Source of the DNA: Lentisphaerota bacterium | Lineage (GTDB): Bacteria > Verrucomicrobiota > Lentisphaeria > Oligosphaerales > JABHEG01 | Reading direction: 5' to 3' | Length of the DNA: 64,000 nt | NCBI GenBank assembly: GCA_018676675.1 | Contig: JABHEG010000296.1 | Location: 14,554-78,553 of the forward strand | The notes under the pieces: generated by a model | Told to the model about the DNA's origin: nothing | Databases searched by the model: none | What the model saw: only the letters and a program-made list of their open reading frames with translations | Program-made: the position numbers and the translations under genes | Part shown: positions 27,854-39,592 of the stretch, in pieces | Layout of the letters: each line of letters opens with the position of its first letter | How positions within the stretch are numbered: position 1 is the first letter of the stretch

Positions 27854-29185
27854 CTACTGGTTGGTGAAAATCTGGAAGCCGCAGTAGGCTTCGTTCCCGT
27901 GCTCGGATATATCGAGGCCGCGGAGCTCTTCCTCTTTGCTGGCCCGCAGGCCGACAGTGACCTTGATCAGGGTGAAGAGTATCATTCCAAGGCCAAACGC
28001 CCAGGCAAAGATTGCCCCGACCCCCAGCAACTGGGTCCCGACGCTTCCGCCCTCGACGTATCCAGGCGTGTTCGGAGTGTTGAAGACACCGGCCATGATT
28101 GTGCCGAATGCCCCGCAAACCCCGTGCACGCTGACCGCACCAACGGGATCGTCGACCTTTAGAACCTTGTCGATGAACTCAACCGAGAGTACAACGATGA
28201 TGCCGGCTAGGAAGCCGATGATGATCGCGTGTACGGGAGTCACGTTTGCGCAGCCTGCGGTGATCGCGACGAGACCGGCCAGAACACCGTTCAAGCTCAT
28301 CGAGACATCAGGTTTCTTGTAGCGGAACCAAGAGACGATCATGGCCCCAATGGCACCAGCTGCAGCGGCCAGGTTCGTGGTCATCGCGATGAAACCGATG
28401 GAGCTGTCACCAGTCGTGGTACTGCCGGGGTTGAAGCCAAACCAGCCGAACCACAGAATGAACACACCTAGAGCCGCGATCGGGATGTTGTGTCCGGGAA
28501 TGGCCTTCACGCTGCCGTCGGGGTTGCGCTTGCCGATTCTGGGGCCGAGCACGATAGCCCCCGCCAACGCAAGCCAGGCACCGCAACTGTGCACCACGGT
28601 CGAGCCGGCAAAGTCAATGAACGACTTCTTCTCAAGCCAGCCTTCGCCAATGCCGAACAGGCTGCCCCAAGCCCAATGGCCGCTAATGGGGTAGATGAAG
28701 GCGCAGATGATGGCACTGTAGCAGAGGTAGCCCGTGAACTTTGTTCGGCCTGCCATGGCTCCGGAAACGATGGTCGCCGCCGTACCAGCGAAGACACACT
28801 GGAATAGCCAGAAGGTCCAGTTGAGTTCGGAAGCACTGAAATCGCTGGCTGCGAAGTGGCTGCCACCGCAAAGGCCGCTGGCGCCGCCGCCGAACATCAA
28901 CCCGAAGCCAACCAGGAACCACATGATTGAGCCGACAGAGAAATCCATCAGGTTTTTCATCATGATGTTGCAGGCGTTCTTGGCCCGGGTGAAACCAGCC
29001 TCGACCATGGCGAAACCGGCTTGCATGAAGAACACCAGGAACGCAGCAACACAGGTCCACACGATGTTCAGGTTCGTCTGCACCTGAGTAGCCGGCTCAA
29101 CTGCCGCTTCCTCGGCGAAACCCGTGGCGGCCGCAGTCAGGGCGACCGCCGATACTCCTAGAATTCGCAACCATCTCGTCGTCAT
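27854..29185 (-). CDS. amtB: ammonium transporter
   Basis: AAGGAG SD. Signal peptide, FFMQAGFAMVEAGF, and an 11-TM Amt pattern (GSTVVH, FGWFGFNPGS, VHGVCGAFG). Confidence 0.95.
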   Translation of the reverse strand: MTTRWLRILGVSAVALTAAATGFAEEAAVEPATQVQTNLNIVWTCVAAFLVFFMQAGFAMVEAGFTRAKNACNIMMKNLMDFSVGSIMWFLVGFGLMFGGGASGLCGGSHFAASDFSASELNWTFWLFQCVFAGTAATIVSGAMAGRTKFTGYLCYSAIICAFIYPISGHWAWGSLFGIGEGWLEKKSFIDFAGSTVVHSCGAWLALAGAIVLGPRIGKRNPDGSVKAIPGHNIPIAALGVFILWFGWFGFNPGSTTTGDSSIGFIAMTTNLAAAAGAIGAMIVSWFRYKKPDVSMSLNGVLAGLVAITAGCANVTPVHAIIIGFLAGIIVVLSVEFIDKVLKVDDPVGAVSVHGVCGAFGTIMAGVFNTPNTPGYVEGGSVGTQLLGVGAIFAWAFGLGMILFTLIKVTVGLRASKEEELRGLDISEHGNEAYCGFQIFTNQ

Positions 29186-29280
29186 TTTCCTAGCTCCTTA
29201 TTTCGTCATCATCTCGTATCTACGTGGGGCTCGTGTTCAGTTCTGCAATGCTCACTGTCCGACCTCATCATCCGGACGGG

Positions 29281-29524
29281 TCAGAAGGAGAAAGCAACTC
29301 CGACTCCGCCGAAGAACACGTCGGGATCCGACCATGTCTGTTCCATGTTGTCCGAGATATCGCTGTCCACGCCATACATAGCGGGACATGGTGTCGGCTC
29401 CGGCTTCAACGGACACCTTCTCCCCGGCTTGCACGTTGCTGGTCAACGCCATTCCCAATACCAGTCCTGCGACACTAACTGCACGTGTGATGGTCGTCAT
29501 CATCTCGATTGCTTCCTTCTGCAT
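29281..29524 (-). pseudogene. collapsed or frameshifted porin-like (TorF/Gcw_chp-like) gene remnant upstream of amtB
   Basis: Signal peptide MMTTITRAVSVAGLVLGMALTSNVQA, then first strand GADTMSRYVWRG in one frame. The +1 frame, which has higher GC3, continues DSDISDNMEQTWSDPDVFFGGVGVAFSF* with an OMP-type C-terminal Phe. Even if repaired, the mature part is only about 48 aa. Confidence 0.4.
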
Positions 29525-29640
29525 TCCGTCGTTCTGTCTCGTTCGTGCGCTCGGACGTTCTTGCCAGTCACAACCGGTGTTGCTTAGGCTGACGCCGTTT
29601 CTCTCACTACATACCGTGGCCATGGTATGGCGCCCTCCAG

Positions 29641-29656
29641 TGCAGGACTGATGCCA
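29641..29656 (-). promoter_or_regulatory. sigma-54 (-24/-12) promoter
   Basis: Minus strand TGGCATCAGTCCTGCA gives GG-N10-GC with exact consensus spacing (TGGCAC-N5-TTGCA). About 105 nt upstream of the porin-like/amtB/glnK transcription unit and downstream of a sigma-54 activator gene. Confidence 0.6.
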
Positions 29657-30140
29657 GACGCATCGAACCTACCTTATCCAACAGCGTCGCAATAGGTTAA
29701 CCTCACCCGGCGAGTGTTTTTCGTATCGCGCCATGTGATACATATATGAACCCGCAATGCACTCGCGATTCATTTATGTGCCCAATAGGGAAAAGGAGAT
29801 CAGAGGAGGAGTACATGGACGATCGAGCGTTACCGAGAGCAGGGAGATGAGCGGAGAGAGGCAGGTAAAGAGGATCGCATCAATATGTATAGTCGCTCAG
29901 GACGCCCCAACTGTGCCATCGGGAGCGCTTGAACTGCAACGCAAGAGCGCTCACGCGGACCACAGAGCAATGGAGTGAGTACGTGTCGACACACTCAGGG
30001 GATGGTTGAACACGCAGGCCAGGTGGCATTCGGAGGCGGGCGGATCAGCTGCGTCAACGGAACTCAGTGCCAACGTTCCGGAGAGGAGAAACTGTGTTGA
30101 CTGAGCTCAGCAAGGCCCTCAATAGGTGCGCTGCGGATGC

Positions 30141-31562
30141 TCAGCGGAACGCACGCGGATCCAGATCGGCGTCCCGGAGTATTTTGTAGAAAGCCTTGCG
30201 TGACATGGCCGCGTGGCGGGCCGCGTGGCTGACATTCCCTTCGTAAACAGTCAGGACCTGGGAGCAATACTCCCGTTTCCTCTCCTGGAGGTAAGATTGC
30301 CAGTCCTCAAGCTTCTCAACCACTGACGACGGGCTGCTCAGAACATATCCCATTCCCTCAGCAGCACGCACTCCCTCCGGCAGGTCGGCAAGCTGGATTG
30401 TTGTGTTCCCGGTCAAGCTGACCGCCCGCTCAATGGCGTTGCGGAGTTCCCGAACATTGCCCGGCCACGGATAGGCCTGCATACAGGCCATCGCTTGCTC
30501 TGATATTCCCGTCACATCCGGGAAGTCGGATGCCAGTTCGTCCAGGAAATGGAACGCCAACTCCGGAATGTCCTCGCCGCGTTCCCGCAAAGGTGGAAGC
30601 TCAATCGGGATCACATTCAGGCGGTAAAAAAGATCCTGTCGGAAGCGCCCTTCGCTGACCTCTCTGCTGAGATCGCAATTCGTCGCCGATATGATCCGTA
30701 TGTCGACCTCAACTTCTTTTCCGGCCCCGACCGGGATGAAGCTGCGTTCCTGGATCACCCGGAGCAATTTTGGCTGCAGATGCAAGGGCATCTCGCCAAT
30801 CTCGTCAAAGAACACCGTCCCGCCATCGGACGCCCCAATCAGGCCTTGGAAGTCGGACGTCGCTCCGGTGAAAGCGCCACGGCGATGCCCAAACAACACC
30901 GACTCGATCAGGGCCTCAGGAATGGCAGCGCAGTTCACCACATTCAGACGGTTTTCCTTGCGCGGGCTCAGGCTGTGGATCGCCCGGGCGACCTCTTCTT
31001 TCCCTGTTCCACTCTCCCCGGTCAACAGAATGCTCATCCCCGTTCCGGCCGCTTGAGCGATGACTCGATACACAGCCAGCATGGCGCGGCTCTGGCCCAC
31101 AAGATTGGCGAAGGTCGGAGGGCGCTCAACCTGGCGGGTCAGCTTCCTGGTCAGTGCCAGCAAGCGCCGCTGCTCAAGGGCCCGAGCGACAGAAAGCCGT
31201 AATTCCTGGCTGTCCACAGGCTTGCAGAGGAAGTCAAACGCTCCCCGGCGAGTGGCCTCTACGGCCAGGTTAACGTCTGAGTGCGCGGTCACCACGATGG
31301 TGGACAGATTGGGGAATCTCTCTCCCACGGCCGACAACAGCGTCAGACCATCGACGTTCGGCATGCGCACATCGCTCAGGAGAAGGTCGCAGGGGCCCTC
31401 GTCAAGAAGACGCAGTGCTTCGCCGCCGTCCGCTGCCCCTCGACACACGTACCCTTCCTCCTGCAGCATCTCAATATAGACGGCACGAACGAGCGGCTCG
31501 TCGTCGGCCACGAGAATCTGAACAGGCTTATTGGTACTTGTCGTTGTCGGCATCGTTGTCAC
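30141..31562 (-). CDS. sigma-54-dependent response regulator (NtrC family: REC-AAA+-Fis HTH)
   Basis: REC (ILVADDE...LLLSDVRMP), Walker A LLTGESGTGKE, GAFTGA loop (HRRGAFTGA), WPGNVRELRN, and C-terminal HTH GNVSHAARHAAMSRKAFYKIL. Confidence 0.9.
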   Translation of the reverse strand: MTTMPTTTSTNKPVQILVADDEPLVRAVYIEMLQEEGYVCRGAADGGEALRLLDEGPCDLLLSDVRMPNVDGLTLLSAVGERFPNLSTIVVTAHSDVNLAVEATRRGAFDFLCKPVDSQELRLSVARALEQRRLLALTRKLTRQVERPPTFANLVGQSRAMLAVYRVIAQAAGTGMSILLTGESGTGKEEVARAIHSLSPRKENRLNVVNCAAIPEALIESVLFGHRRGAFTGATSDFQGLIGASDGGTVFFDEIGEMPLHLQPKLLRVIQERSFIPVGAGKEVEVDIRIISATNCDLSREVSEGRFRQDLFYRLNVIPIELPPLRERGEDIPELAFHFLDELASDFPDVTGISEQAMACMQAYPWPGNVRELRNAIERAVSLTGNTTIQLADLPEGVRAAEGMGYVLSSPSSVVEKLEDWQSYLQERKREYCSQVLTVYEGNVSHAARHAAMSRKAFYKILRDADLDPRAFR

Positions 31563-31705
31563 AGCTTCAGGAACGCCCCTCCCGGCCGCGTCGGTGTCCC
31601 GGGCTCATCCGGCGCCTGCTGCCCACCCCCGCTTGAGAACACCGCCCCTCCTCCGTACCACGCTTCCACAATAGAGCGTGCTCCGCTCGGGATCAACCAG
31701 CTCTG

Positions 31706-33607
31706 TCACCATGTGCAGGACACCGCCAGGCTGCCTCTGCGTTCTGTCGGGGGCTGTCCGGGGAACGTCTCGAACGTGTCATCCCACAGATTGTCGAGGC
31801 TTGCGGTTACAAGGAGCGATGGCGTGCGAGGGGGGCGGAACTGAACGGCGATGGTGCCGTCTGTACCCGTTCGATCGCTTGTGCGAACCGGATTATCGGC
31901 ATACAGGTGGGCAGACTGGGTGGCGATGAGGCGGCACCACTGCGTCACGGCCCATTCGCCAGTCAGGCGAATCTCATGTTCGGGATAGTCAAGAACATAT
32001 CTGCTCGCAAACACGTCTGACCGCGAACGTTTGTGCAGGTATGTGTAGGCGAACGCCATCCGTAGCGTGGCACTCACGGGGAACTCCGCCCGTGCTCCAG
32101 CCCCCATGATACGTAGTCGGCGCAGGTTGACCGCCTGCCAGCGGCTGCTTGGGGTGTCTTTGATCCAGTCAACAGCATTGTGCTCCCGCCGACTGAACGC
32201 GCCAATGCGCCAGTTCCCTCCTTGTTCCCAACGCCCGTCCCAGGCCACGTCCCATTGAGCGCTTTCCTGTCTCTCCAGACCTGAATCGCCAAGACTCCCC
32301 GGGGAATCGTAGGCGAGCTCCGTGTAGGAAGGAAGTCGCACCCCACGGGTGTAGGCCAGCGAGAGCACATGTGCTCCGGCGGGAGTATACGTAACTCCGA
32401 AGGCTGGAAGAACCGCAGGGCGGTCTTCAGAAAAGAACAGGAATCGACTCCCTCCTGCAAAGGACCAGCGGCCCCATCTCAACTCGGGCAGGACCATTCC
32501 CCCTCCTCGCTGACGGTCGTGTTTCCCAAGGCCAGTGCTCGAAATCGTTCCGCGGTAAGCACTGTCCAGACGTTCATCTTCCGCTTCCAGTCGCCACGTG
32601 AGCGACAGTGGTTCAGCGTGGCCAAAACCCCCGCCAACGGCTGATGAAAGAACGTCTGATCGATGGCGATTTCGATACAATTCAGGGCGTTCTTCGTCCA
32701 GCAGATAGAGGTCGCGGAACTGCCTGTACAGAAGGCTGGCCCGTCGGATGGGAGCCCCCTCCTCCCCGTTCCTCCACGTGGCCAGAACCAGTGTGTCACG
32801 AATCGTCTCTTGAGCGGGAAGGCTGGCTGGCGCTCCATAGTAACCCCGGGCTCCAAAGTCGCGGTATTGGGTTCCGAAGACCAGATCAGCCTGGCTCTCC
32901 GACATCCGCAACTGTAGCTGTCCTCCTCCGGACCATCGTCGGAAGCTGTTGTCGGAGTAGTCAAAACCGTTTGCCGTCTCTCTTCCTCCGAACACCCCCA
33001 AGCCAAAACTCCGAATCCCCTCGCTCTCCCCGAACGTCTCCTGCCACAGCCCTTCTTGCCAGGAATGCCCACGCCCCCCCTGCCCCCAGTCCAGGCGCCC
33101 CCCTGAAGCAACTGGAGCCAAGGCGAGCTCCACACTCCCGACCAGATGTCCAGTGCCACCTCGAACCTGATTGAGCCCGGTCGACACGACCGGCTCCTCA
33201 AAGAGCTGCCAGGGAAGCGGAACGTCGGCATGGAAGTGCTCTGTCTGCGGATTCCGCAGCCCCAGGCCGGCCAACGACAGTCCTGCTCCGCTGAAGCTGC
33301 TCCCTTCGACCTGAAGATCGGCCTGTCCACCGACGCCCTGCCCCTGAAGTCGAAGCCCCGTTACCTGGCGCAACCAGGTCAGAGCAGCTTGCCTCGAGGT
33401 CGTGATCGTGCGTGCATCCCCAACGACGGGGGCCTCAACAAGCATGGAGGGGAGTTGACGCACAGGCCCGATCTCACCGCCTCCGACGGTCTGAAAGAAG
33501 GCCAGGTACAGAAGGCATCCCACCCCGGCGGCAGAGAGTCGTCGATCGAGGTTGTGATAGCGGGAAGTCGTCACGCGGGACGAATCAATAGTCGAGAATG
33601 TGGACAT
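31706..33607 (-). CDS. TonB-dependent outer-membrane receptor (BtuB-sized)
   Basis: TonB-box-like SMLVEAPVV, a plug-like region, repetitive beta-strand pattern, and C-terminal NLWDDTFETFPGQPPTERRGSLAVSCTW ending in an aromatic residue. The start (ATG 33607) overlaps the birA stop and is uncertain. Confidence 0.8.
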   Translation of the reverse strand: MSTFSTIDSSRVTTSRYHNLDRRLSAAGVGCLLYLAFFQTVGGGEIGPVRQLPSMLVEAPVVGDARTITTSRQAALTWLRQVTGLRLQGQGVGGQADLQVEGSSFSGAGLSLAGLGLRNPQTEHFHADVPLPWQLFEEPVVSTGLNQVRGGTGHLVGSVELALAPVASGGRLDWGQGGRGHSWQEGLWQETFGESEGIRSFGLGVFGGRETANGFDYSDNSFRRWSGGGQLQLRMSESQADLVFGTQYRDFGARGYYGAPASLPAQETIRDTLVLATWRNGEEGAPIRRASLLYRQFRDLYLLDEERPELYRNRHRSDVLSSAVGGGFGHAEPLSLTWRLEAEDERLDSAYRGTISSTGLGKHDRQRGGGMVLPELRWGRWSFAGGSRFLFFSEDRPAVLPAFGVTYTPAGAHVLSLAYTRGVRLPSYTELAYDSPGSLGDSGLERQESAQWDVAWDGRWEQGGNWRIGAFSRREHNAVDWIKDTPSSRWQAVNLRRLRIMGAGARAEFPVSATLRMAFAYTYLHKRSRSDVFASRYVLDYPEHEIRLTGEWAVTQWCRLIATQSAHLYADNPVRTSDRTGTDGTIAVQFRPPRTPSLLVTASLDNLWDDTFETFPGQPPTERRGSLAVSCTW

Positions 33608-34565
33608 CCCCACACAACACCTCACGCAATTGACCATCAGTCAGTCGGAGCAGAAGAGCCCCGTCGGGAGACAAGTCCTCAGCGATCCCCTCAAGTGTTT
33701 CGCTCAACTGAGTCAAGGCGACGTGCCGCCCCAGGAGCGTTGAGTAGTCTCTGAGTTCAGGCAGGAAAGGGGCAAGACCATCGCTGCGCCACACGTCGTA
33801 AGCCGACTCAAGATCGTTGAGAAAAGTGCCGAGAAGGCGACTCCGGCGGACCTCGTGACCGACGGCAGTGCAAAGAGAAGTGGCCTGATCGCCAATCTCG
33901 GGGGGGAAATCCTCCAGGGAAGTGTTGACGTTCACCCCCACACCGACCACCAAGTGCTTGACTCGGTCCATATCTGCCCCCATCTCACAGAGAATTCCCC
34001 CGACTTTCCGACCTGCGATCAGCACGTCGTTGGGCCACTTGATCGATATATCGGGGCAAGGAGCAGACGTCTGGATCGCCCTGCGGAGCACCACAGCTGT
34101 TACAAGAGCCATCTGGGGAGCCTGGCCCGGGGCGACTTCCGGCCGGAGGACGACAGACACGTGAAGGTTGGATGAAGGAGGGGAGAACCACACCCGACTC
34201 AAGCGTCCTCTCCCTCCAGATTGGGCATCCGCGACCACAACCGCCCCCTCTGGACACCCCTCATTCGCGAGCCGGGATGCAACGGCATTGGTGGACACCG
34301 TCTCCTCCAGAAAACGGTAGTCCCGCCCAAACCTGTCCGTCTGCAGCCTGGGTATGACTTCTTCAGGCACGAGAAGGTCTGGTGAGCTGTCCAGCCGATG
34401 TCCGCGATGGCGAACCGAGGTGATGCAATACCCACGTTCCCGGAGCTTATTGACGTGTTTCCAGACCGCGGTTCGAGAAACGCCAAGCTCCTCGCACAGA
34501 AGAGTCCCGGAGACGAAGTCGCCGGATTGTCGAAGGATGGTTAGAATCCGCTCGGTCTTGCCCAT
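33585..34565 (-). CDS. birA: bifunctional biotin-[acetyl-CoA-carboxylase] ligase / biotin operon repressor
   Basis: N-terminal wHTH (GTLLCEELGVSRTAVWKHVNKLRERGY), ligase motif GGRGRLSRVWFSPP, and KWPNDVL. Confidence 0.9.
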   Translation of the reverse strand: MGKTERILTILRQSGDFVSGTLLCEELGVSRTAVWKHVNKLRERGYCITSVRHRGHRLDSSPDLLVPEEVIPRLQTDRFGRDYRFLEETVSTNAVASRLANEGCPEGAVVVADAQSGGRGRLSRVWFSPPSSNLHVSVVLRPEVAPGQAPQMALVTAVVLRRAIQTSAPCPDISIKWPNDVLIAGRKVGGILCEMGADMDRVKHLVVGVGVNVNTSLEDFPPEIGDQATSLCTAVGHEVRRSRLLGTFLNDLESAYDVWRSDGLAPFLPELRDYSTLLGRHVALTQLSETLEGIAEDLSPDGALLLRLTDGQLREVLCGDVHILDY

Positions 34566-34662
34566 GCAACAACTCCAATGGGGGACTTTGATCCGCCGCC
34601 AGGAAGACGTGCAACCATTACGTCATGCCTCCGAGCCAGCTGAAACTAGCCGAGCAATCCGC

Positions 34663-34696
34663 ATTGTCAACCCGAGAGGAGGATATGGTTGACAAT
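34663..34696. promoter_or_regulatory. BirA operator (bioO-like inverted repeat)
   Basis: Perfect inverted repeat ATTGTCAACC-N14-GGTTGACAAT, about 100 nt upstream of birA. It differs by one base per half-site from E. coli bioO (TTGTAAACC...GGTTTACAA). The TTGACA within it can serve as a -35. Confidence 0.65.
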
Positions 34697-34883
34697 GGCC
34701 AATTCCCACTCCCTGCCGAGAAAGTGGGACGGACGGATTGGACTTGAGTCCGCAACGTCGCCTGCCCCCCCTTGGTCATGTATAGTTAGATCAGCTCGCC
34801 CTCCTTCCCCGGGAAGGGCCTCCCTTTGCCCAAGAGGCACCGCCGCAGCCGAGGGGGCGTGCAAGGTTCACAACCACAAGGCA

Positions 34884-35789
34884 ATGGGTATGGATAACGC
34901 AACCAATCCCGGATCATGGCGCGAACTCTATCCTTTCGAATCCCATTTCGCGGACATCGAGGGACACCGGATTCACTACGTCGATGAGGGCCGAGGAACA
35001 CCTGTCGTGATGGTCCATGGCAACCCAACGTGGTCCTTCTACTACCGGAATCTCGTGCGTGACCTCAGCGCGACACACCGGGCTATCGCCGTCGATCACA
35101 TGGGATGCGGGTTGTCAGATAAGCCTCAGGATTATCCCTACCGATTGCGGCGCCATATCGACAATCTGGAATGCCTCATGGATCACGTGCTCGGGGGCGA
35201 GAAACTGAGCCTGATTGTCCATGACTGGGGCGGGGCAATCGGTATGGGCTACGCAGTGAGACACCCGGAACGGATCGAGAGGATTGTGGTGCTGAATACC
35301 GCCGCTTTCCTAGTGGACAGGTGTCCGTTGAGGATCCGTCTCTGCCGTGCTCCCATCCTCGGTCCTCTTCTCCTGCGGGGGCTGAACGGATTTGCCCAGG
35401 CTGCCATTAAGATGGCAGTTGCCAAAGGGCGCCGCCTCGCCCCCCTTGTTCGTGCCGGGCTGCTCGCACCCTATGACAGCTACGCGAACCGGATCGCTCA
35501 ACTGCGCTTCGTGCAAGACATACCTCTGTCCCCAAAGCACCCGACTTGGGACACCATGGTGGAGATCGAGAAAGGCCTTCCTCAGTTGGCACGGAAACCG
35601 ATGCTGATCGGCTGGGGAACTCAGGATTTTTGCTTCAACGACAGGTTCCTCAAGGAGTGGCAGGCCCGTTTTCCCGAAGCAAGCGTCCATGCCTTTGAAG
35701 ATGCCGGTCACTACGTCCTGGAGGACGCATACGACCGAATCGGACCACTTGTCACTCAGTTCCTGAAACCGGACGCAATCGTTTCGTAG
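34884..35789 (+). CDS. alpha/beta hydrolase, haloalkane-dehalogenase-like subfamily (Asp nucleophile)
   Basis: IHYVDEGRGTPVVMVHGNPTWSFYYRN and nucleophile elbow LIVHDWGGAIGMGYA. Start moved to the ATG at 34884. Confidence 0.85.
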   Translation: MGMDNATNPGSWRELYPFESHFADIEGHRIHYVDEGRGTPVVMVHGNPTWSFYYRNLVRDLSATHRAIAVDHMGCGLSDKPQDYPYRLRRHIDNLECLMDHVLGGEKLSLIVHDWGGAIGMGYAVRHPERIERIVVLNTAAFLVDRCPLRIRLCRAPILGPLLLRGLNGFAQAAIKMAVAKGRRLAPLVRAGLLAPYDSYANRIAQLRFVQDIPLSPKHPTWDTMVEIEKGLPQLARKPMLIGWGTQDFCFNDRFLKEWQARFPEASVHAFEDAGHYVLEDAYDRIGPLVTQFLKPDAIVS

Positions 35790-35808
35790 CCAAATCGGGG
35801 ACGGCATC

Positions 35809-36450
35809 ATGCGAACTGGGAAAATTGCAGCTTGCGCGGTTGGACTATTCGTTCTCGCGTTCCTGGCTCTCAAGGGCCCTGGAATCAACGGTTGGACGAT
35901 TCATAATTTCCCCGTGACAGACGACCGGGTGTTCTGCTTCGGCGACAGCTTGGTTGTCGGCATTGGAGTAAACAGAGCAACGGGCAGCTACCCGAGCCAA
36001 CTGAAGAACCTGCTCCCGCGCGGGACCACGGTCGCTGCTCTCGGTGAGACAGGAAGAACCGCCGATCAAGCTCTCACTTACCTCGATCACGATCAGCTTA
36101 TGACAGGCGGCACGGCGATCGTCACCCTCGGGGGCAATGACATCCTCAAGAAAGTGCCCTGGTCCAGGACTGAAGCTGCTCTTGAGGAGCTCTTCCTGCG
36201 CCTGCAGGACCGTGGAATGATGGTGGTATTTACGGCCGTGCGCGGTCCTCTGGGGGCCGAACGAAGCCGCGAATGTGTGGCGCTCTGCCGCCGAACCGGG
36301 GTCGTCCTCGTTCCTGACATCCTCGACGGCATCATCAACAAGCCTGAGTTGATGTCTGACGCGGTACACCCGAACACCGATGGCTACCGCCTGATGGCAG
36401 AGAAGATCTTTGATGTGGCCGGCTTCTTCATCACCAACCGCCCTGAATAG
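35809..36450 (+). CDS. SGNH/GDSL hydrolase (arylesterase-like), membrane-anchored or secreted
   Basis: N-terminal hydrophobic segment. Block I FCFGDSLVVG, block III TLGGND, block V DAVHPNTDGY. Confidence 0.85.
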   Translation: MRTGKIAACAVGLFVLAFLALKGPGINGWTIHNFPVTDDRVFCFGDSLVVGIGVNRATGSYPSQLKNLLPRGTTVAALGETGRTADQALTYLDHDQLMTGGTAIVTLGGNDILKKVPWSRTEAALEELFLRLQDRGMMVVFTAVRGPLGAERSRECVALCRRTGVVLVPDILDGIINKPELMSDAVHPNTDGYRLMAEKIFDVAGFFITNRPE

Positions 36451-36598
36451 ACGATCCTTGCCCGATAGGCCCTGGTGTGGCATATTCTGACGTCGTCCAT
36501 GGGGATGTCTGAGGCATCAGGACAAGCCCGTCGTGCTCTGCCCTTCTGCTTCCAGGCCATCTCACAAATCAGCGTTCCCCAAGGCACGCCACAACAAC

Positions 36599-37582
36599 AT
36601 GCAGGGCTCCCCCCAAGAAAAACCAATCCGCACGGACGGCCGAGCTGCCGACGTGTCAGTCTTCAAAGGCCTGGCCGACGACACTCGATTGCGACTCCTC
36701 CGCCTCCTGTTCCGCGAAGAACTGAACGTCCAGGAGTTGGCCTCTATTCTGGAAATGGGACAACCACGCGTCAGTCGTCATCTCGGAGTGCTTCGGAACG
36801 CGCGACTTGTCCAGGACCGACGGGAAGGAACGCGCGTTTTCTACACCCTTGCCCCGTTGAGCGACGAAATGGGAGGGGTGAGTGCCTACATCGAGTCCCT
36901 GGGAAAGAGCGAACACCCTGATCTCGAAGGGCTGGGTGAAGCCCTCCGACGCCGGGTAAACGACGCTCAATCGTTCGCAGACTGCAAAGCCGAGCATTGG
37001 GACGAGATCGGGCGCCTACTTCACAATTCGTCTGCCAGTCTGCTGGCGATGGCCAGGCTTGCCCCAACCGGGATAAGGATCGCGGATCTGGGAACCGGGA
37101 CGGGGCTCATGCTCCCATTCCTTTCAGCGATGGCGGATCACGTCTACGCAATTGACCACTCCGCCCGAATGCTCGAACGAGCCAGAGAACGGTGCAGAGA
37201 ACTCGGCATCGACAACGTCACGTTCGTCCAGAGGCGCATCGAAGCGCTCTCCGACCACCTCCCCCCCTGCGATGCTTTGCTCCTCCACTTCGTTCTCCAC
37301 CAGGTAGCCCGACCACAGGCCTGCCTCAAACAGGCCGTTCAGTTTCTGGCCCCCGGAGGACGCCTAGTGGTCGTCGACCGCGTTCAACATGAGGACGAGA
37401 AAGTGACGACCACTTTCGGGTCGTTGTGGCTCGGATTCGCTGAGGAACAGCTGCAGAAGTGGCTCGGTCGAGCGGGGCTGATGGATTCGCGTTGGTACCC
37501 TCTCGCTGGAATTGACCGAAGTGTCGATCCCCATCTCGACATCTTCGTCGCCTGCGGCAGCAAGCCGTCCGCCACGGAGTGA
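36599..37582 (+). CDS. ArsR-family HTH fused to class I SAM-dependent methyltransferase
   Basis: LADDTRLRLLRLL...VQELASILEMGQPRVSRHLGVLRNARLV (ArsR), then MTase motif I IADLGTGTGLMLPFL. Confidence 0.85.
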   Translation: MQGSPQEKPIRTDGRAADVSVFKGLADDTRLRLLRLLFREELNVQELASILEMGQPRVSRHLGVLRNARLVQDRREGTRVFYTLAPLSDEMGGVSAYIESLGKSEHPDLEGLGEALRRRVNDAQSFADCKAEHWDEIGRLLHNSSASLLAMARLAPTGIRIADLGTGTGLMLPFLSAMADHVYAIDHSARMLERARERCRELGIDNVTFVQRRIEALSDHLPPCDALLLHFVLHQVARPQACLKQAVQFLAPGGRLVVVDRVQHEDEKVTTTFGSLWLGFAEEQLQKWLGRAGLMDSRWYPLAGIDRSVDPHLDIFVACGSKPSATE

Positions 37583-37612
37583 CCACTGTCTAACCGGAAG
37601 CTCCCTAGCGCT

Positions 37613-39592
37613 GTGGAACCATCGATTCGCGATAAGACAACTGAGTTTTTCGGGGAAGAGACGCCTTTGCTGCGAGCTGCCGAGGTCGGGGGACGACCTT
37701 ACGAGCCACGCCCCCAGCAGCAGCAGATGGCTGACGCCGTAGCTGAGCACTTGGATCAGGGCCTCCATCTCTGCGTGGAAGCGCCAACCGGCGTCGGCAA
37801 GACCTTTGCCTACCTCGTTCCTGCCATCCATTACGCATTGGACCGCGCGCTCCCGGTCATCGTCAGCACGCACACAATCAGCCTTCAGGAACAGATTGTC
37901 CGCAAAGACATTCCAGTTCTGCAAGAGCTTCTCGGCTTGGAGTTCAGGACCGCTCTGGCCAAGGGCCGCAGCAATTATCTCTGCCTGCGCAGGCTGACTG
38001 CCCTGGCGGATACCGACCAGCGACATCTGCCTGATCTGCACTGGCTTTCCGAAATCGACCAAATATGGGAGTGGCAGAAGCAAACGGAGGATGGGTCAAG
38101 AAGCGATCTTGGTTTTGAGCCCAGCCCTGCTTTGTGGGACGGGATCAACTGCGAGGCCGGAAACTGTCTTGGAGGCCGTTGCGCATTCTTTCGCCGGTGT
38201 TACCTCTTCCGGGCTAGGAAGGAATGTCTCGAGTCACACGTGATCGTGGCCAATCACGCCCTCTTCTTCGCGGACATGGCCATGAAGCAGGAAAGCGGGG
38301 AGGAGTCCGGGGGCGTGCTCCCGGATTACGGCGCCGTCGTCCTTGACGAGGCACATACCATCGAAGATTGCGCCGCGTCACACCTTGGCCTTCGCCTCAC
38401 GACATTCGAACTCCGGCGCACTCTCCGGCGCCTCTACCAACCTGAACGCAACCGCGGCATCCTCGCCAACTCCTCGTGTGTCGATGCACGGACCGCGGCC
38501 ATTGAAGCGACGGAGAAAGTCGATCGCTTTTTCAAGCGTATCGTGGAGTGGCTGGACAGCCAGAACCGGAACCCCCTTCGCTACACGAGTCCGGGACACA
38601 TCCCCGACCTGCTGGCCGATGCTCTGGCAAGTCTGGAGCAGAAGGTCAAGCACGCTGCAGAGACGGCTGACAGCGACGACGAGCAGACGGAGCTTACCAC
38701 CCTGTCGGAAGGCCTCCACGTGTACCGCCTGGGCCTCCGGTCCTTCCTGGGCATGGAGCGGGAAGAGCATGTCTATTGGTTTGAACGCTACGGGTCACGG
38801 CAGGATGAAGTGACCTTCAATGCCGTTCCCATTGAGGTAGCCCCGTTGCTGCGCGAACGCCTCTTTAACCGAAATTTCACCGCTATCCTGACCAGCGCCA
38901 CGCTTGCCGTCAAGGGAGATATCGAGTACTTCCAGAAGCGAGTCGGGGGCCATGACACGAGTGGACTGATCCTCTCCTCGCCGTTCGACTTTGAGCGGCA
39001 AGTAACGCTCTACCTCTCAGGGAGCATGCCCCCCCCCAAGGACACCACCAGTTTTGTCCCGGCCGCATGTGAACACATCCGGGAGTTCCTTCTCCAAAGC
39101 GAAGGAAGGGCCTTCGTCCTGTTCACCAGCTACAGCATGATGCACGAATCCGTCGACTGCCTCGCGGATTTCTTTGACGAATCAGGGTACCAGCTCTTCG
39201 TCCAGGGCGAAGGACTGCCCCGGTCACAGATGCTCGACGCTTTCCGCGAAGATGTGAGCTCTGTTATCTTCGGAACGGCAAGCTTCTGGACCGGTGTAGA
39301 TGTCCCCGGAGAAGCGTTGAGCAACGTGATCATTGTGCGTCTCCCGTTCGCGGTACCTGACCATCCGTTGGTAGCCGCTCGACAGGAAGCCATTGAGCAA
39401 CGAGGGGGCCGGGCGTTCGGGGACTACGCTTTGCCCGAGGCCATCCTCAAATTCCGCCAGGGATTCGGCCGGCTCGTCCGCAGCAAGGACGACCATGGTA
39501 TCGTCGTGGTCCTGGACAATCGGGTCATCCGAACGAACTACGGCAGAGCTTTCCTCGACTCAATTCCCCATTGTGAACGACACGTCTTCTGA
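37613..39592 (+). CDS. dinG: ATP-dependent DNA helicase, DinG/XPD (Rad3) family with Fe-S cluster cysteines
   Basis: Motif I VEAPTGVGKTFAYLVPA, a four-Cys cluster (C..C....C.....C near NCEAGNCLGGRCAFFRRC), DEAH box VVLDEAHTIED, and C-terminal motifs FGTASFWTGVDVPG and GRLVRS. GTG start uncertain. Confidence 0.85.
   Translation: MEPSIRDKTTEFFGEETPLLRAAEVGGRPYEPRPQQQQMADAVAEHLDQGLHLCVEAPTGVGKTFAYLVPAIHYALDRALPVIVSTHTISLQEQIVRKDIPVLQELLGLEFRTALAKGRSNYLCLRRLTALADTDQRHLPDLHWLSEIDQIWEWQKQTEDGSRSDLGFEPSPALWDGINCEAGNCLGGRCAFFRRCYLFRARKECLESHVIVANHALFFADMAMKQESGEESGGVLPDYGAVVLDEAHTIEDCAASHLGLRLTTFELRRTLRRLYQPERNRGILANSSCVDARTAAIEATEKVDRFFKRIVEWLDSQNRNPLRYTSPGHIPDLLADALASLEQKVKHAAETADSDDEQTELTTLSEGLHVYRLGLRSFLGMEREEHVYWFERYGSRQDEVTFNAVPIEVAPLLRERLFNRNFTAILTSATLAVKGDIEYFQKRVGGHDTSGLILSSPFDFERQVTLYLSGSMPPPKDTTSFVPAACEHIREFLLQSEGRAFVLFTSYSMMHESVDCLADFFDESGYQLFVQGEGLPRSQMLDAFREDVSSVIFGTASFWTGVDVPGEALSNVIIVRLPFAVPDHPLVAARQEAIEQRGGRAFGDYALPEAILKFRQGFGRLVRSKDDHGIVVVLDNRVIRTNYGRAFLDSIPHCERHVF

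Follow-up and report, generated by a model that had tools for sequence, protein, structure and literature searches.

The birA-receptor locus

We analysed a 64,000-nucleotide (nt) stretch from a Lentisphaerota bacterium (GenBank assembly GCA_018676675.1, contig JABHEG010000296.1, here C100), referred to below as the window. A predicted BirA operator stands there in front of birA, which is followed on the minus strand by an overlapping gene for a TonB-dependent outer-membrane receptor (Table 1). This arrangement, compared with that in related genomes, makes the receptor a candidate TonB-dependent importer of biotin.

The birA product was examined with domain and equivalog models. Pfam recognises HTH_11 (residues 5-57, E 1.8e-14), BPL_LplA_LipB and BPL_C (E 2.1e-9), and the ligase motifs GRGRLSRVW and KWPNDV can be read in the protein; the winged helix-turn-helix (wHTH) and the GRGRxxRxW motif on which the original prediction relied are thus both there. 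The score against TIGR00121 is 183.8 bits (cut-off 83.1), while that against TIGR00122 is 47.3 bits, under the cut-off of 70. The full-length PRK11886 equivalogs also fall short (211 against 362), and the protein is therefore regarded as a divergent member. From the combination of wHTH and ligase domains it is a predicted group II, repressor-type BirA, and a single genomic match makes it the only BirA of the genome.

The receptor open reading frame (ORF) spans 31706-33637 and has several possible starts. The ATG at 33607 gives 633 amino acids (aa) and an overlap of 23 nt with birA, as had been proposed. That it is the first ATG, as had also been proposed, does not hold, since an earlier in-frame ATG at 33637 would yield 643 aa and an overlap of 53 nt; 33613 is a further alternative start, and the database gene call has 635 aa.

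Pfam identifies TonB_dep_Rec_b-barrel in the receptor (E 1.7e-16), and Plug is recorded for the homologues P0006, P0007, P0035 and P0058. An AlphaFold2 model built with 19 homologues has a mean predicted local distance difference test (pLDDT) of 81.6, a predicted template modelling score (pTM) of 0.81, and 22 barrel strands behind a plug. In a Foldseek search the best structural match was BtuB of E. coli, with a TM-score of 0.75-0.78 by target length, 16-17% identity over about 600 columns and an E-value of 2e-24. As modelled, the fold is the plug-and-barrel of TonB-dependent transporters. The TonB-box-like segment SMLVEAPVV and the aromatic C-terminus, both noted earlier, are present, the last residue being W. 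At one orthologous locus (L038) genes resembling ExbB/ExbD stand immediately before the receptor.

The operator and the putative promoter

The operator had been described as a perfect inverted repeat at 34663-34696, about 100 nt upstream of birA. The repeat can be read directly from the sequence, with 97 nt between its proximal end and the birA ATG (34565). The hexamers TTGACA and TAGTTT, 16 nt apart on the birA strand, also stand where they had been reported. The TTGACA is part of the gene-proximal half-site. A comparable spacing is seen at about 25 related loci, where a TAnnnT hexamer lies 16-18 nt past the proximal half-site GGTTGACA and a start codon comes shortly thereafter; the half-site evidently doubles as a putative -35 box, and TAGTTT in the window conforms to this pattern.

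A scan of the whole genome with the palindrome, as had been suggested, was carried out and returned one site. Neither the exact operator nor any version with up to one mismatch occurs a second time in the 14.1 Mb. A weight matrix was trained exclusively on sites from other genomes, all of them relatives, and then scanned over the genome itself. The operator of the window scores 36.5 bits and the runner-up 22.0 bits, a gap of 14 bits. The runner-up (C44:33735), upstream of an integrase-like ORF, was rejected as a second operator and ascribed to chance. A site with two mismatches (C318:55993) lies inside an 842-aa ORF and was likewise rejected as a chance match.

The same motif, TGTnAACC-N14-GGTTnACA, is found directly upstream of bioB in four related genomes that contain this gene (G002, G003, G004 and G030), and in a fifth (G008) it precedes bioF and also bioD-bioA. 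The palindrome is far beyond chance. Because it is unique in the genome and precedes bioB, bioF and bioDA in relatives, we read it as the BirA operator of this lineage, and it is very probably the one BirA operator that this genome has, with a regulatory role.

That the repeat is fortuitous, or the site of another regulator, we hold to be very improbable. The half-site TTGTCAACC is one base off the E. coli-type TTGTAAACC, and the operator is predicted from sequence and comparison, both of which would suit this alternative. The uniqueness of the site and the gap to the next match speak against it, as do the conservation of its position across families, its occurrence before biotin synthesis genes, and the fact that the motif is missing where BirA has no helix-turn-helix (HTH).

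Conservation of the operator at receptor genes

Orthologues of the receptor, with 36-44% identity, were found in 15 of the 41 genomes of the same order (Victivallales). We also collected 80 further orthologous receptor loci, 990 kb in total, from Kiritimatiellia, Lentisphaeria and metagenome bins designated "Verrucomicrobia". A strict palindrome search in these loci yielded 35 sites, 33 of which, one per locus, are on the promoter of the receptor or of a birA-receptor unit. Loss of the palindrome at orthologous loci had been named as a finding that would tell against the prediction; it is conserved at these 33 of 80 loci.

Gene order among the 33 loci varies. At 21 of them birA is not nearby. 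At the other 12, birA either precedes the receptor in the same orientation, separated by 13-24 nt or overlapping it, or is divergent around the operator, or, in L072, lies downstream. Since the order changes in this way, the link between operator and receptor evidently survives rearrangement. The L072 locus (L072:7735-10780) has the reversed order of operator, receptor and overlapping birA. In genome G021 a BirA-type palindrome upstream of birA (L012:112-141) is joined by a second one between birA and the receptor (L012:1283-1312), which suggests separate BirA-controlled promoters there.

We also considered that BirA may autoregulate birA only, the receptor being a passenger with another substrate such as cobalamin, a metal or a siderophore. 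Some database entries label members of the family 'vitamin B12 transporter' or 'iron complex receptor', BtuB is the top structural match, and no metatranscriptome contig joins birA to the receptor. Against this stand the 21 loci with the operator on the receptor promoter itself and birA not nearby, and the mutual exclusion of receptor and bioB in Victivallales described below; a passenger receptor is thus quite improbable.

For cobalamin in particular, the receptor reaches 27.0 bits with the BtuB equivalog TIGR01779 (cut-off 599.7) and 21.6 with PRK10641 (cut-off 836), and in a profile search of PDB the match to BtuB reached only E 1e-9 and was limited to the C-terminal half. No Rfam match was obtained in 29000-37000 of the window at E-values up to 1, nor at 17 orthologous loci lacking the operator. 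Four cobalamin riboswitches are present elsewhere in the genome. One of them (91.5 bits) directly precedes a different receptor of 669 aa with both Plug and barrel (G000:C102:1087-3407), which is likely the true BtuB of the organism; the other three are on C20 and C363. Clustering with receptors of known unrelated specificity, which the original prediction had allowed for as a refutation, was not seen, BtuB being the closest solved relative at the identity given above.

Conserved neighbours were searched for an inner-membrane partner by clustering the ORFs of the 80 loci. Apart from ilvD, birA and an epimerase, the clusters contained only lineage-specific genes, and no candidate partner was retained.

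A sister family in Opitutaceae

With a profile of the family we detected a distant clade of receptors (22-27% identity, 213-285 bits). Of the genomes of one family, 34 of 35 contain it, as do 17 of 26 in a second family. The first family is Opitutaceae, as judged from protein names (Nibricoccus, and Oleiharenicola lentus for P0203); the second belongs to Verrucomicrobiia. Only one of the 35 Opitutaceae genomes has bioB.

The sister receptor genes (L122-L141 and L162-L170; genomes G206, G215, G340 and others) carry a palindrome TTGTTAAG-N13-CTTAACAA 60-200 nt upstream. The same palindrome is found about 30 nt upstream of bioB in seven of the nine bioB loci of the two families. The operator-bearing Opitutaceae and the second family have full-length BirA including the HTH. 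As judged from these sites, the sister family repeats the predicted biotin-operator logic with a different operator variant. The family occurs in cultured Opitutaceae, which makes the prediction directly testable.

Distribution of the receptor and of biotin genes

No genome among the 41 of Victivallales combines the receptor with bioB: the receptor is found in 15, bioB above the cut-off in 20, and neither in six. These genomes are related to each other and the counts are given without a P-value. Both states, receptor and bioB, occur inside four families and one genus, and the pattern is therefore not a single split in the tree. BioY was found in one of the 41.

A wider sample of the phylum comprised 401 evenly sampled genomes, each at least 90% complete, in which a match with E <= 1e-100 was taken as a close orthologue. 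Such an orthologue is present in 44 genomes, 34 of them lacking bioB; over the whole sample bioB is present in 240 of 401. Genus g117 of family f50 (L153-L155) is an exception to the complementary pattern, with a divergent receptor copy of about 28% identity, two bioB copies and no palindrome; the receptor of this genus may differ in function.

The genome that contains the window is a metagenome bin of 14.1 Mb in 390 contigs (61% G+C, 93.9% complete, 8% contaminated). It exceeds all 40 relatives searched, which measure 1.7-10.6 Mb, and part of this size may be an artefact of the contamination of about 8%. Searches of this bin gave no match above cut-off for bioB (best 79 against 225 bits), bioD (48 against 83), bioA (310 against 405) or BioY. 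Two proteins have E[AS]MKM motifs of biotinyl domains (C225:24465-24839 and C307:46139-46453). One is a carrier of 155 aa and one resembles oxaloacetate decarboxylase alpha or pyruvate carboxylase B (OadA/PycB); the second match has one in-frame TAG within an open frame of 628 aa. No canonical biotin carboxyl carrier protein (BCCP/AccB) scored above its cut-off in this genome (best 36 against 115 bits). With biotinyl-domain proteins present and the biotin synthesis genes not found, the organism needs biotin and apparently can neither make it nor convert its precursors.

Sequence does not reveal substrate specificity, and the imported compound could be a vitamer or conjugate instead of free biotin, such as dethiobiotin, biocytin, biotinylated peptides, biotin sulfoxide, pimelate or another precursor. 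At two loci (L029 and L033) the receptor gene begins before bioA ends, bioA being identified by TIGR00508 with 455 and 440 bits (cut-off 405), and in L029 a BioC-like gene is found further upstream. In genome G337 the receptor gene has bioB beside it in divergent orientation. Ten of the 44 receptor genomes can make biotin, and in these the uptake of a precursor, or of a substrate for salvage, would be plausible. All 15 receptor-positive Victivallales are without a detected bioB, however, and in the genome studied here bioD and bioA were not found either. This organism would therefore have no use for dethiobiotin or earlier precursors, and only biotin or a compound releasing it fits. On this gene content, vitamers that need BioB or BioD would be excluded for this genome, whereas biotin conjugates would be compatible with it. 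As a general account of the receptor we consider a vitamer or conjugate unlikely.

Interpretation

The proposal that the birA-receptor locus is a BirA-linked system for candidate biotin uptake is supported by comparative genomics, through the conservation of the operator and the complementary distribution of receptor and bioB. We give a probability of about 0.7 to the reading of the receptor as a TonB-dependent biotin importer.

The system would work as follows. When biotin is plentiful, BirA with biotinyl-5'-AMP would dimerise on the operator and shut off the two-gene birA-receptor operon. When it is scarce, the adenylate would be spent on apo-carboxylases, the operator would be freed, and ligase and receptor would be made. 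The BtuB-sized receptor would most likely use energy from TonB to capture very dilute external biotin and carry it across the outer membrane. Such uptake would serve an organism that is unable to make biotin yet has biotin-dependent enzymes. We infer repression by holo-BirA, and derepression that raises ligase and receptor, from established BirA biology; binding of BirA, co-transcription of the two genes and the substrate we infer from the locus and its relatives.

A number of observations weigh against a biotin importer under BirA control. A generic sigma-70 promoter scan made no call at the putative operon promoter, and TAGTTT matches TATAAT at three of six positions. The Pfam Plug model stays under threshold (1e-3) on the receptor of the window. 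One marine metatranscriptome, produced in the study that probably also supplied the source sample, contains contigs that match stretches of the receptor and birA genes at full identity. None of them crosses the birA-receptor junction, and carry-over of DNA is possible; these contigs give no evidence either way on co-transcription. The DNA of the window is also detected in marine metagenomes. Among the 44 receptor genomes of the phylum sample, ten also have bioB (eight of them in one genus), so that the receptor does not strictly take the place of biotin synthesis. No inner-membrane biotin transporter was identified, BioY not being found in this genome. Because the bin is 93.9% complete and 8% contaminated, the genes not found are not proven absent.

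About half of the orthologous loci are without the operator, most of them from Pontiellaceae-like genomes. In all five operator-less genomes examined, BirA aligns only from residue 86-96 onwards and the ORFs have 243-272 aa. By this comparison these proteins are predicted ligases without a DNA-binding domain, and the operator would be missing from the five genomes because a BirA without HTH is no repressor and needs no operator.

Biotin is present in seawater at picomolar levels, and many bacteria are unable to make it. All bacterial biotin transporters known to us are inner-membrane proteins, and passage of biotin across the outer membrane has been assumed to be passive. To our knowledge no TonB-dependent biotin transporter has been characterised. 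Full-text literature searches brought up neither a TonB-dependent biotin transporter nor a receptor in a BirA regulon; one paper mentions both terms without connecting them (PMC9123166).

We lean towards the wider proposal that the receptor and its Opitutaceae sister clade represent the first TonB-dependent family of outer-membrane biotin transporters. The family would be widespread in bacteria of the Planctomycetes-Verrucomicrobia-Chlamydiae (PVC) group (Victivallales, Kiritimatiellia, Opitutaceae), would replace synthesis in auxotrophs, and would be wired to BirA wherever BirA binds DNA. If this is true, TonB-dependent transporters gain a new class of substrate, and genomes without BioY imply an undiscovered inner-membrane biotin transporter. 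It would also explain how auxotrophic PVC bacteria compete for biotin, and would let biotin scavenging be recognised in metagenomes from sequence.

Neighbouring genes

The features of the region are collected in Table 1. The divergent alpha/beta hydrolase gene was tried as a BioH-like member of the regulon and rejected. It scores 22.8 bits with the BioH model (cut-off 207), its best matches are haloalkane dehalogenases, and it is not conserved beside birA in relatives. The response regulator and ammonium transporter downstream of the receptor appear to form a unit for nitrogen regulation that has no connection with the operator and receptor.

Table 1. Position, strand and basis of the features at and around the birA-receptor locus (window coordinates)
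Feature	Position	Strand	Remarks
Predicted BirA operator	34663..34696	.	Perfect inverted repeat ATTGTCAACC-N14-GGTTGACAAT, 10-nt arms; read directly
Putative operon promoter	34643..34670	minus	-35 TTGACA 34670-34665, 16-nt spacer, -10 TAGTTT 34648-34643; inferred
birA, predicted group II bifunctional biotin-protein ligase/repressor, 326 aa	33585..34565	minus	Pfam, TIGRFAM, motifs
TonB-dependent outer-membrane receptor, 633 aa, candidate biotin importer	31706..33607	minus	Pfam barrel, AlphaFold2, Foldseek
TonB-box-like segment SMLVEAPVV	33422..33448	minus	Aligns with family consensus xxxVTA just before the plug; low-confidence region of the model; resemblance only
Haloalkane-dehalogenase-like alpha/beta hydrolase	~34884-35789	plus	Divergent, ~187 nt from the operator
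Sigma-54-dependent response regulator (NtrC/AtoC-like, 473 aa) and ammonium transporter	27854-31562	minus	Downstream of the receptor, 143-nt gap
ArsR-type HTH fused to S-adenosylmethionine (SAM)-dependent methyltransferase (349 aa), then DinG/Rad3-like helicase (659 aa)	36533-39592	plus	

Comparison with known systems

The nearest regulatory model is bioO/BirA of E. coli, which controls bioA and bioBFCD. Both systems have a group II BirA with wHTH and half-sites of the type TGTnAACC with a 14-nt spacer, and the operator of the window would likewise overlap its promoter. They differ in the target, which here would be only birA and an outer-membrane receptor instead of biosynthesis genes. BirA regulons have reportedly been reconstructed by comparative genomics by Rodionov et al. 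in 2002. Among the Proteobacteria covered in a large study of regulons, autoregulation of BirA was described only in Desulfovibrionales, and the regulons given there list no TonB-dependent receptor (PMC5343134).

The receptor resembles BtuB (PDB 2gsk, 1nqg) in its length of about 600 aa and in the 22-strand barrel with plug, and BtuB imports a vitamin that represses it, as is predicted for the receptor. BtuB is controlled by a cobalamin riboswitch, whereas a protein repressor is predicted here, and sequence identity between the two is low, as given above.

TonB-dependent thiamine receptors have been predicted by means of thiamine pyrophosphate (TPP) riboswitches, and Bacteroides thetaiotaomicron has an outer-membrane thiamine transporter. 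They are a precedent for a water-soluble vitamin of about 250 Da with a dedicated TonB-dependent transporter found through a vitamin-specific regulatory element, although the vitamin, the element and the protein family are different. BioY, the S-component of an energy-coupling factor (ECF) transporter, and YigM/BioP share the physiological role proposed here, acquisition of biotin, and BioY is a common member of BirA regulons. These are inner-membrane proteins with unrelated folds, whereas the receptor is proposed to work at the outer membrane.

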